Notes under the pieces: model-generated
Seen by the model: only the letters and a program-made list of their open reading frames with translations
Database searches by the model: none
What the model was told of the DNA's origin: nothing
Made by a program: the position numbers and the translations under genes
Origin: Escherichia coli
Lineage (GTDB): Bacteria; Pseudomonadota; Gammaproteobacteria; Enterobacterales; Enterobacteriaceae
Strand: one strand, 5' to 3'
Assembly (NCBI RefSeq): GCF_003334305.1
Contig: NZ_QOWS01000023.1
DNA length: 64,000 nucleotides
Shown: positions 31,643-35,273 of the stretch, piece after piece
How the letters are laid out: every line of letters starts with the position of its first letter
Position numbering within the stretch: the stretch's first letter is position 1

Positions 31643-31688
31643 GAATTAACATGGGTAGGCCGTTTAATGAGCCTACCCACTGACTTAT

Positions 31689-32033
31689 TTATCTTTTTTT
31701 GAAAAAAATTAAGATAAGAAAAAGAACAATATTTGTTACAGGAAGTACCCCCAAAACTCCCCAGTACTTACTCCATCCTAGAGACATCGTATATCTACCA
31801 AGGATTTGACAAAACCCAAAACTTAACCCTATACCTATACTTCTTAAATTTAATGTCGTAGTCAGGCTTAAAATAAATAGAACAAGGATGGTAATAGCCC
31901 ACCACAATAACCATGCCTTAACAAAATCAGATTTTTTGCTGTAAGGTTCTTTACCCAAGAACAACTGCCAAAAGTTACCATTCCCCATATAGAATCCATT
32001 CCCCAAGATATTGTTTATAGAATAAAAATACAT
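31689..32033 (-). CDS. Hypothetical small membrane protein (114 aa, 2-3 predicted TM helices); possibly YigG-like
   Basis: ATG-initiated ORF in low-GC DNA with hydrophobic stretches WLLWWAITILVLFILSL and VLGVLPVTNIVLFLILIFF; no family recognised with confidence. Confidence 0.45.
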   Translation of the reverse strand: MYFYSINNILGNGFYMGNGNFWQLFLGKEPYSKKSDFVKAWLLWWAITILVLFILSLTTTLNLRSIGIGLSFGFCQILGRYTMSLGWSKYWGVLGVLPVTNIVLFLILIFFKKR

Positions 32034-32308
32034 TCCAATTATATAATTAAAATATACCCCATCAATAAAAACTTACACACTCTAAATTACTACTGTATAG
32101 TTATCAATGCAAAGACTGCTATATTGCATATATATGCAAACCTCATAATTCAGGTAATATATATATTCAAAACAATTATATATAAAAAACAATGTAAAAA
32201 ATATTCAAATCATCCATCAGAAATATATTCTACCCATCCAGGCTTGAGCATTTATCACGCTTTCAGTTCATAATCTATACATTAACATCATGGTCAATAT
32301 TAATAACT

Positions 32309-32587
32309 TTGAATGATATCAACCTGGCTTTGAGTTTTATTCTGGTTATTAATAATACCTATGTAAATATCAATATTGGAGCAAAAAGAATAAGAGATAC
32401 TGGATGTAAGGCAATCTACTTTGTATTGATTTCATTGGGTTTGACACTTTTTTCTATTATCTCTGCAGCAATTGAAGGGGTGAGATGTGAGTCATTAAGC
32501 GTCCAACTCAACGTGGCATGGATATTATTCACAACAATTATATTATCTGCGATTCCCTCGGCTAAAATGTCGCTGTCAGCACACTAA
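32309..32587 (+). CDS. Questionable small hydrophobic ORF (92 aa, TTG start only)
   Basis: No in-frame ATG near the 5' end; the ORF depends on a TTG start; hydrophobic; AT-rich context. Confidence 0.25.
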   Translation: MNDINLALSFILVINNTYVNINIGAKRIRDTGCKAIYFVLISLGLTLFSIISAAIEGVRCESLSVQLNVAWILFTTIILSAIPSAKMSLSAH

Positions 32588-32611
32588 CTTACTCACAGCG
32601 ACATCGTATAG

Positions 32612-32749
32612 TTACAGCCAGTTCTTACGCTTAAAGTACAGATACGGTGTCAGGCCCGCAAGGATCATAAAGATAATCGCGCCAGGGTAGCCAAAGCTCC
32701 ACTTCAGTTCTGGCATAAACTCAAAGTTCATGCCATAGCTGGAGGCAAT
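32612..32749 (-). pseudogene. Duplicated 3'-end fragment of corA (last ~45 codons), fused upstream to unrelated sequence
   Basis: ~138 bp at 32612-32749 align at ~94% identity (8 mismatches) with the 3' end of intact corA (34322-34459); encodes ...[43 protein letters not shown]. Confidence 0.8.
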
Positions 32750-32938
32750 CCGCGTAGGAAAAAGTTTCCTAATCGGTAAATTCAACATTTTGTTATTAAC
32801 AATGAGCAAGACCAATCATTAACGAGGTTCTCTTCAGAGATGTAATGAAAAAATGTGAAATGTACTTCTTTTTTAAATATTTTTTTACCCTAGCATTTGT
32901 TCTCGAATTGACATTGAGCTTAAATATAACCAAGGCAA

Positions 32939-33793
32939 ATGCAAATGAATAACATATTACTTCCGCCAATTAATATTCCCTGTACACTTTTCGAAACTAT
33001 TAGTTTATTCGATGATTTTTCTGCTGATGATATGCAATATGGTGATATGGTAGAACAAGACTTTCTCTCACTCGGCCTAAGCGATATCTCAGCAAAAGTT
33101 GATCCTTACAGACTTATTAAATACCATTTCCCTGGCCCAGGTTCTATTAATGTTGCTTTTAGTGCCTCAAGTTCCGGAACAAAAATATCACAACGTGAAT
33201 GCACTGATATTTTATTTGCAGAAATGAAAGAACTAGCAAAAATGTTTTCCTTTTTTGGACAAAATAAAACACTTATCGAAGATCTGATTGAACATTTTAG
33301 ATATAGAAATGGCAGCAATTTTCATAGCCAACAATTAAATTTATCTTTTCATGAAAAAATAAATAAATATGGTTATAATAGTCCAATACGAATAATCAAA
33401 GAATGTATCGAAAATGGCATTAATTCAACTCCCTCGACAGGATACCAACCTCTTATCCTGCAAAGCATTAAAACCAAATTACTTTCATCAAGACTAAATA
33501 AATTTAATGACTTCGAGGACAGTTTTAATGGCTTAGGAATCAGTGTTCATGATATTTCAGCTCAAAAAATATCTCTTTTAAGTTTTCAAAACTACGCTAT
33601 AGGATGGAGTGCAACAATTCATTTTGTAGCACAGGACCACTTCGGTCTTGATGTAACTGATATCAAAAACAAGACTTACAGCAAATATAGATTTTTTCGC
33701 ATATGGTTCTTTTTACAACGGCATAAAGACTTTGCTTTCAAACCTTTTTTCACCAATTTTAACACTATCGAAAGAATCGAAAATTATCTATGA
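32939..33793 (+). CDS. Hypothetical cytoplasmic protein, 284 aa, acidic N-terminus; first gene of an overlapping two-gene cassette
   Basis: ATG-initiated ORF in a low-GC islet; no signal peptide; stop overlaps the next start (ATGA); family not identifiable without a search. Confidence 0.65.
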   Translation: MQMNNILLPPINIPCTLFETISLFDDFSADDMQYGDMVEQDFLSLGLSDISAKVDPYRLIKYHFPGPGSINVAFSASSSGTKISQRECTDILFAEMKELAKMFSFFGQNKTLIEDLIEHFRYRNGSNFHSQQLNLSFHEKINKYGYNSPIRIIKECIENGINSTPSTGYQPLILQSIKTKLLSSRLNKFNDFEDSFNGLGISVHDISAQKISLLSFQNYAIGWSATIHFVAQDHFGLDVTDIKNKTYSKYRFFRIWFFLQRHKDFAFKPFFTNFNTIERIENYL

Positions 33794-34269
33794 AAAGCAA
33801 ACTCCAGAAAATTATATTATGTTTATTTCTTCTATGCTGCATCTATAATTTATGGACATTGCGTCCTGTACAGATTTTGTATACATACTCTGATGCTGGC
33901 AATTCAGTCTTTCTGGTCGTTGATCATCTGCCATGGACTGACAGCGATAAAATAAATTGGTATCTGAAGCATCAGAATGAAATTAAAAATCAACATCCCC
34001 TACCAGAAGGTAGTTGGCATACCTGGTATGTCATTGATATCGGTAATGGCTTCACTGACTATAAAAAATATATCGAAGGGCCGTATGAAGATCTCTACTG
34101 TTTCCCGACAATTAAGAGCAATGATAATTGCATCGTGAAAAATTACTTAATGGTTATTAATGAATACCCTTATCGTAACACTCATATTGGTATTAACGAT
34201 TTTACTGAGTATCAATTAACACAAGAAAATAAAATAGAGCGAGTTTTCAATCCGCATGACTTTAAATAA
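33790..34269 (+). CDS. Hypothetical exported or membrane-anchored protein, 159 aa; second gene of the cassette
   Basis: N-terminal hydrophobic segment MKSKLQKIILCLFLLCCIYNLWTL; start overlaps the upstream stop by 4 bp. Confidence 0.6.
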   Translation: MKSKLQKIILCLFLLCCIYNLWTLRPVQILYTYSDAGNSVFLVVDHLPWTDSDKINWYLKHQNEIKNQHPLPEGSWHTWYVIDIGNGFTDYKKYIEGPYEDLYCFPTIKSNDNCIVKNYLMVINEYPYRNTHIGINDFTEYQLTQENKIERVFNPHDFK

Positions 34270-34322
34270 GACAATTTTTAGAAATAAGCCGGATAAAAAA
34301 ATAGCTTTATCCGGCACTCATA

Positions 34323-35273
34323 TTACAGCCAGTTCTTGCGCTTAAAGTACAGATACGGTGCCAGGCCCGCGAGGATCATAAAGATAATCGCGCCTGGGTA
34401 GCCGAAACTCCACTTCAGTTCTGGCATAAACTCAAAGTTCATCCCATAGCTGGAAGCAACGAGCGTCGGCGGCAGGAATACCACGGATACCACCGAGAAG
34501 ATTTTGATGATGCGGTTCTGCTCGATGTTGATAAAGCCCATCGCCGCCTGCATCAGGAAGTTCACCTTCTGGAACAGGGATTCGTTATGCGGCAGCAGGG
34601 ATTCGATATCTCGCAGGATTTCACGCGCCTGCTCCAGTTGCCCACCCGGTAAACGCGCCTTGCGTACCAGGAAGTTGAGCGCACGCTGGGTATCCATCAG
34701 ACACAGGCGAACTTTCCAGCCGATATCTTCCAGTTCCGCCAGCGTGGAGAGCGCCTCATCGTACTCATCGCCCTGATGCCCTTCCATAATTACCCGGCTC
34801 AACTGCTCCAGATCGCTGTAGATATTTTCAATTTCATCTGCCAGCTGTTCGATTTTGGTTTCGAACAGATCCAACAGCAGCTCGTAGGCGTTACCGTCCA
34901 CCATTGACTGGCTACGGGCGCGCATACGATACAGACGGAATGCAGGCAGTTCACGCTCACGCAGAGTAAACAGACGACCATCACGGATGGTAAATGCCAC
35001 AGTGGAGTTACCGGCGTGATCTTCCGCATCTTCAAAGAAGAAGAAGGAGTGAATATGCAGGCCGTCGTCGTCTTCAAAGAAACGTGCCGATGCTTCGATG
35101 TCTTCCAGTTCCGGGCGGGTTGCCAGGCTCTGGCCAAGTTCAGATTGTACGCGCAGTCGCTCGTCGTCGTCCGGTTCGACAAGATCAATCCATACTGCAT
35201 TTACAAGGGGTTGTGACTCTTCGACTTCCAGCCGGGTCAGTCGGTTATTTTCCAGTTGAAATGCGCTCAGCAT
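34323..35273 (-). CDS. corA: Magnesium/cobalt transport protein CorA, 316 aa
   Basis: ORF track 34323-35288; start at 35273 ([15 protein letters not shown]...); C-terminal [10 protein letters not shown] motif. Confidence 0.95.

Follow-up and report, generated by a model that had tools for sequence, protein, structure and literature searches.

The AT-rich islet between rarD and corA in one strain of Escherichia coli raises a simple question: what do the two overlapping genes that it carries encode? In the stretch of DNA analysed here (64,000 nucleotides, hereafter the window) the gene order is that of the E. coli chromosome, recQ-pldA-yigI-rarD, then the islet, then corA-ysgD-yigE-uvrD. A preliminary description, made from the letters of the window, recognised neither protein and suggested an orphan effector/immunity or toxin/antitoxin-like module on the basis of architecture. 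Both proteins in fact belong to named families, DUF3289 (TIGR03034) and DUF943, and we consider that they probably form an orphan T6SS effector-immunity pair of the kind already published for these two families.

The two genes

Both open reading frames exist as they had been described, the first at 32939..33793 (+ strand, 284 aa) and the second, the predicted immunity gene, at 33790..34269 (+ strand, 159 aa), and they share the sequence ATGA, in which the ATG of the second (33790) overlaps the TGA of the first. The length reported for the first protein is more doubtful. Its frame opens with ATGCAAATG, which leaves the start ambiguous (32939 or 32945), and the true start is probably the second ATG, giving 282 aa (32945..33793), since the RefSeq start of the DUF3289 gene lies there and since in a second E. 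coli allele the first ATG is missing and AAGGAG precedes the other one by 7 nt. In the window, a Shine-Dalgarno-like AAGG is found at 32931-32934. The Salmonella orthologue starts at the position of the first ATG; for E. coli, 32945 appears to be the safer choice.

The strong AT-richness relative to the flanking core genes is borne out by the numbers: GC content is 0.326 for the cassette against 0.518 for the whole 64-kb window, 0.29-0.35 across the islet and about 0.52 in both flanks, and GC3 is 0.24 in the first gene and 0.34 in the second against 0.63 in corA. A comparison of two E. coli alleles gave a dN/dS of 0.18 for the DUF3289 gene and 0.17 for the DUF943 gene, i.e. both are under purifying selection, and thus both frames are real coding genes that are kept by selection. 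The two alleles have 84% amino acid identity in the effector and 93% in the immunity protein, with dS values (0.44 and 0.22, respectively) that are higher than those of corA (0.13) and rarD (0.20).

Non-coding sequence and islet surroundings

A promoter-like region had been proposed at 32816-32938. Scanning for the sigma-70 consensus gave no match there or elsewhere upstream of the cassette, and the whole scanned region yielded 4 matches against 7.5 expected from shuffles. What does stand is that approximately 160 bp upstream of the DUF3289 gene (from about 32780) are conserved together with the cassette between E. coli locus variants. When the window is compared with strain FHI_NMBU_03 these 160 bp or so are conserved, whereas the sequence further upstream is wholly different, and when the region is aligned with Salmonella and Enterobacter the conservation is confined to E. 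coli. By allele comparison, the non-coding sequence at 32780..32944 (+ strand) moves with the cassette; it presumably comprises the 5' UTR and is where the promoter would lie. At the other end, a terminator scan found a GC-rich hairpin (34288..34315, not assigned to a strand) between the convergent DUF943 gene and corA, with an 11-pair stem followed by a T-run on the - strand. It was called as the intrinsic terminator of corA; the stem lies 19 nt past the DUF943 stop codon, and it may also end the cassette transcript.

In this lineage the cassette is bounded on the left by a duplicated 3' fragment of corA (32612..32770, - strand) that holds the last 50 or so codons and the stop. It matches the 3' end of the intact gene (34323-34481) at about 94% identity, so that the last 150 nt or so are present twice. 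In strain D1, the closest genome (99.9% identical over the islet), RefSeq labels this fragment as an incomplete CorA pseudogene; the loci of FHI_NMBU_03 and Salmonella have no such fragment. We read it as a probable recombination scar, left when the cassette came with a new corA 3' end. D1 also has a second full ysgD-corA (NZ_CP010134.1, 1531747-1533756) that lies between two IS1A copies far from the native locus, suggestive of a composite-transposon-like event that duplicated the Mg2+ transporter gene.

In the upstream half of the islet (31650-32600) GC content falls to 0.26. This half contains an ORF for a hydrophobic protein of 114 aa (31689..32033, - strand) with no family match, and one of 92 aa (32309..32587, + strand) that resembles YigG weakly (33% identity over 45 aa, E 9e-5) and scores far under the cut-off of NCBIfam PRK11371; it is a weak YigG-like remnant.

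Distribution and genomic slot

At a coverage of at least 80%, the cassette was found in 2634 of 5426 complete E. coli genomes, i.e. in about half of them, with alleles ranging from 100% down to 88% nucleotide identity and with O157:H7 and CFT073 among the carriers. Genomes of the K-12 type have yigG-yigF in the rarD-corA slot instead. Strain FHI_NMBU_03 has the cassette immediately between rarD and corA, while in 1407 genomes, including that of the window, it is preceded by other islet DNA and the corA 3' fragment. In E. coli TUM1881 only the last 130 nt or so of the searched part of the cassette remain, and these are annotated as DUF943. Salmonella enterica has a 63%-identical pair in the same slot, in genomes whose names include houtenae, arizonae, diarizonae and salamae, whereas in Enterobacter the DUF3289/DUF943 pair adjoins valS. 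In both genera, too, the DUF943 gene lies directly downstream of the DUF3289 gene and overlaps it. The variation of the rarD-corA slot points either to a long-standing polymorphism or to a hot spot of repeated insertion.

None of the E. coli, Salmonella or Enterobacter loci has T6SS genes beside the pair, and all these copies are therefore orphans, as the preliminary description had called the one in the window.

The DUF3289 protein

The HMM searches that had been proposed for both proteins leave little doubt about their families. Pfam assigns the first to DUF3289 (PF11692) with an E-value of 5.8e-82, covering model positions 2-270 of 272, and NCBIfam assigns it to TIGR03034, the "YPO3983 family", with 428.7 bits against a cut-off of 156.45; the second belongs to DUF943 (PF06092, E 1.7e-26). 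The names DUF3289 and DUF943 are already attached to these genes in the RefSeq annotation of thousands of E. coli genomes. Neither assignment makes the pair a housekeeping one, since half of E. coli, K-12 included, does without it. An anti-phage defence role or a prophage origin of the cassette was also considered and dropped, there being no PADLOC or PHROG matches.

As noted before, the first protein has no signal peptide: its N-terminus is not hydrophobic and its highest KD19 (19-residue Kyte-Doolittle) value is 1.44. All of the family motifs (VHD, QDHFGLDxxD, FRxWFxLQ and KPF) are present. In an alignment of 40 DUF3289 sequences, with identities down to 22%, H234, F235, G236, D241, W256, L259, Q260, P269 and F270 are invariant and D233, D238, H204, D205, D31, G35 and D36 nearly so. 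The conserved histidines and aspartates among them (H204, D205, D233, H234, D238 and D241) would suit an enzyme. According to the model, the protein has the fold of a solved DUF3289 member.

A search of 1.84 billion representative proteins retrieved 440 relatives, many of them stand-alone proteins of about 280 aa in Enterobacterales, in addition to longer fusions. PAAR was present in 9 of 28 long relatives and DUF4280 in one of the 28, and others carry Peptidase_M23, Peptidase_M14, PG_binding_1, LysM, SH3_3 or a glycoside-hydrolase-like domain. In the PAAR fusions DUF3289 sits at the C-terminal toxin position. Judged by these domain combinations, the fusions with PAAR, with DUF4280 and with peptidoglycan enzymes point to T6SS delivery and to a cell-wall context. 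In the protein from the window, Pfam finds DUF3289 alone and no PAAR, VgrG, Rhs or MIX/FIX/PIX/WHIX delivery domain. Nor does a delivery determinant (adaptor, vgrG or hcp) lie beside the cassette, where the neighbours are rarD, the corA fragment and corA.

The DUF943 protein

Residues 2-152 of the second protein align with positions 1-150 of the 151 in the DUF943 model. The hydrophobic signal or anchor segment that had been described for this protein corresponds to its sole hydrophobic stretch, residues 8-26 (KD19 1.79), and the AF2 prediction has a helix at residues 2-23. Twelve homologues have in common the N-terminal anchor, a TD.DKI motif and two invariant cysteines (C104 and C114), which would suit an oxidising compartment, i.e. 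a periplasmic domain. The protein is thus predicted to have a single N-terminal membrane anchor and an otherwise periplasmic location, its orientation also being a prediction. An AF2 model built from the 12 homologues had a pLDDT of 53.7, too low for a fold search, and the DUF943 profile matched nothing in the PDB. Some of the database sequences of this family (P0124 and P0151) show a frameshift in mid-sequence with the frame regained later, probably through errors in sequencing or assembly, or because the gene is decaying in a few genomes.

Co-occurrence with a T6SS

The preliminary description had suggested looking for secretion loci in genomes that have the cassette. No T6SS was found within the 64-kb window. 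A complete set of T6SS core genes (tssA, B, C, E, F, G, H, J, K and M) lies at aspV in D1, the closest genome, along with tagH, two hcp genes and a gene for a DotU/TssL-type protein that is annotated icmH. Since the vgrG (tssI) gene beside this cluster (1599912-1603314) is split by an IS3-family element, it is uncertain whether this system is competent to fire, despite core genes that are annotated as intact.

Across the 5426 E. coli genomes, tssC of O157 Sakai or relatives of at least about 70% identity were found in 2847; for this comparison tssC was counted in about 2770-2850 and the cassette in about 2630-2750. A chimeric query made of the cassette and tssC hit a union of 3505 genomes (median of two places in each). 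Both are present in approximately 1900-2100 genomes, an approximate intersection, where about 1400 would be expected if they were independent; the association of the cassette with tssC is positive, on counts that take no account of phylogeny. Around three quarters of some 2650 cassette carriers have tssC; the remaining quarter, without the tssC type searched for, is an upper bound, as the search reaches one T6SS lineage and its relatives at about 70% identity or more. In these searches 580 records had the divergent cassette allele (80-90% identity band) and 580 had their best tssC match in the 60-80% band; the two sets may represent the same lineage, possibly phylogroup B2, since CFT073 has that cassette allele.

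Comparison with published systems

The closest published system is T6EC1/T6IC1 of Yersinia pseudotuberculosis IP32881, which combines the two Pfam families in the order seen here, the immunity gene being directly downstream. There, a PAAR-DUF3289 protein from a T6SS operon is toxic to E. coli only if it is directed to the periplasm, the cells becoming round, and the downstream DUF943 protein restores both growth and shape (Geller et al. 2024, PMC11148199). The two DUF943 partners are much alike: that of Yersinia (T6IC1) has 157 aa, a predicted transmembrane helix at 7-26 and a periplasmic remainder (PMC11148199), and that of the window has 159 aa and a hydrophobic stretch at 8-26. PAAR-fused relatives align to residues 10-276 of the DUF3289 protein with 36-39% identity. 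Unlike T6EC1, the protein from the window is a bare DUF3289 domain encoded in a core-genome slot far from T6SS genes; toxicity and rescue are findings on the Yersinia pair.

For such an orphan there is a precedent, likened here by description, in Aeromonas jandaei DSM 7311, whose DUF3289 effector (WP_042032936.1) is also encoded away from the T6SS clusters, is secreted by the T6SS and kills non-immune kin. It was detected in the T6SS-dependent secretome, and in competition assays it formed a true effector-immunity pair with the product of the downstream gene (WHIX paper, PMC12135965). That immunity protein has 95 aa and three transmembrane helices and is not a DUF943 protein (PMC12135965). DUF3289 has also been named as one of the C-terminal toxin domains found in PIX effectors, and a survey of Klebsiella tied clusters of DUF3289 and DUF943 to a T6SS.

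A structure in the PDB, 9jdi, is titled as an effector-immunity complex, and its DUF3289 chain (9jdi_A) is the BtpeA C-terminal domain of that title. This domain and its partner BtpiA (9jdi, 9jg8 and 9jg9; Li et al. 2025, Cell Host Microbe 33:1901) come from Bacteroides fragilis, which is in a different phylum from E. coli. BtpeA is a multidomain effector of 608 aa that is loaded via a dedicated adaptor, and articles citing that work assign it no activity. BtpiA and DUF943 appear to be unrelated as immunity proteins, no DUF943-like chain having been found in the PDB with the DUF943 profile.

Relation to colicin M

The proposal that DUF3289 is a homologue of colicin M came from a Foldseek match to PaeM (PMC11148199). 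Our own Foldseek comparison of the DUF3289 model with the colicin M fold gave a weak match (probability 0.44, TM 0.27). At the sequence level, no relation of the window protein to the colicin M family (ColM, PaeM and pectocins M1/M2; PF14859, with Cmi as the immunity protein) is detectable: Pfam reports no PF14859 Colicin_M match even at E-values up to 10, and HHalign gave the DUF3289 profile a probability of 0.3% against ColM, whose query sequence had been checked against 2xmx, and of 0.1% against a profile of nine ColM-domain sequences. The ColM motif DxYDx5HR is absent from the window protein and from the DUF3289 family consensus, and the conserved acidic/histidine cluster of DUF3289 is instead DHFGLDxxD plus VHD. 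Homology by sequence was therefore rejected, the lone and non-significant pairing being that of SVHD in DUF3289 opposite SYDD in ColM. The link to colicin M is thus a structural one and, on the evidence of the model, weak.

The two also differ in their biology. Colicin M is imported through FhuA/TonB, whereas the window protein has no receptor-binding or translocation domains and T6SS delivery is proposed for it; the window pair is chromosomal rather than carried on a colicin plasmid. That the DUF3289 family consists of periplasm-acting cell-wall toxins is well supported, while lipid II cleavage as its mechanism is plausible but unproven.

Proposed function and competing explanations

Family membership, fold, topology, gene coupling, purifying selection, the fusions seen in relatives and co-occurrence with a T6SS are the basis on which we assign the cassette, with some confidence, to the orphan effector-immunity pairs of the DUF3289/DUF943 kind. 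Periplasmic toxicity, rescue by DUF943 and T6SS-dependent delivery are taken from the literature on relatives and would hold for E. coli by analogy. The DUF3289 protein (282/284 aa), having no signal peptide, would be made in the cytoplasm and would presumably be harmless there. A T6SS encoded elsewhere on the chromosome (at aspV in D1) would be loaded with it and would carry it into the periplasm of Gram-negative neighbours, where it would harm the synthesis or integrity of the cell wall and so lead to rounding and lysis; in its most specific form, the published idea is that lipid II, the precursor of peptidoglycan, is attacked in the manner of colicin M. The DUF943 protein (159 aa) would be translationally coupled to it through the ATGA overlap and anchored in the inner membrane by its one N-terminal helix, and its periplasmic domain would bind and block toxin that arrives from sister cells. 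Expression, loading and firing of the E. coli copy, like the chemical nature of its target, are inferences.

Of the two options in the preliminary description, it is the effector/immunity one that holds, given the two named families and their published behaviour (PMC11148199 and PMC12135965). A classical cytoplasmic toxin-antitoxin module is not supported, since the partner is predicted to be a membrane-anchored periplasmic protein and the published toxin acts only when targeted to the periplasm.

Several other explanations should be considered. AT-rich DNA is subject to silencing by H-NS, and the composition of the cassette suggests that it too may be silenced. One may accordingly imagine a stranded or domesticated orphan that is no longer fired, its DUF943 gene being kept mainly for protection from the DUF3289 toxins of competitors or because its loss is costly, with the effector riding along or having a T6SS-independent role. 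Such a history would also agree with the lack of a delivery domain and of T6SS neighbours, with the quarter or so of the carriers that lack the searched tssC type, and with the disrupted vgrG beside the T6SS of D1. Nevertheless, that quarter is an upper bound, the effector is intact in about 2600 genomes and under a constraint (dN/dS 0.18 vs 0.17) that one would not expect of a passenger, its catalytic-looking residues are invariant, and the orphan DUF3289 effector of Aeromonas is actively secreted (PMC12135965). We therefore regard this explanation as unlikely, although it survives better than the others.

A smaller chance is given to a group of variants: the bare DUF3289 protein may have a T6SS loading signal of its own, the pair may work independently of a T6SS in those carriers with no detectable one, or the protein may have a new cell-wall activity that is not colicin-M-like. 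A loading signal, as far as the alignment can tell, may reside in the conserved N-terminal 85 residues or so, with D31, G35 and D36 (DDM..GD), which are retained in the PAAR fusions.

It is improbable that the pair is no interbacterial weapon at all but serves as a type II-like addiction module in the cytoplasm or, alternatively, encodes a housekeeping enzyme of the envelope together with a regulator. The overlapping two-gene layout is indeed toxin-antitoxin-like, the chromosomal slot is stable and common to E. coli and Salmonella, and some DUF3289 relatives are fused to cell-wall enzymes. However, the PAAR and DUF4280 fusions and published secretion (PMC12135965) argue for T6SS delivery. A membrane-anchored, periplasmic DUF943 protein with conserved cysteines, as predicted here, is not a cytoplasmic DNA-binding antitoxin, the cassette has no PADLOC or PHROG matches, and the pair is missing from half of E. 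coli, K-12 being one example.

Toxicity on over-expression is a common artefact for small membrane proteins, and this weighs against the least probable explanation of all, namely that the roles are reversed, DUF943 being a membrane-active toxic effector and DUF3289 an adaptor or chaperone for T6SS loading. [quoted passage not shown]

Implications

The orphan effector-immunity pair proposed here is no new class of system, since papers of 2024-2025 had already described the family together with its toxicity, immunity partner and T6SS delivery. What the assignment does provide is a likely interbacterial cell-wall toxin and its antidote for two "hypothetical" genes in about half of the complete E. 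coli genomes, O157:H7 and CFT073 among them, and in several non-enterica subspecies of Salmonella. It bears on competition between strains in the gut, and on how the rarD-corA slot is to be read, as a place that holds either this pair or yigG-yigF.
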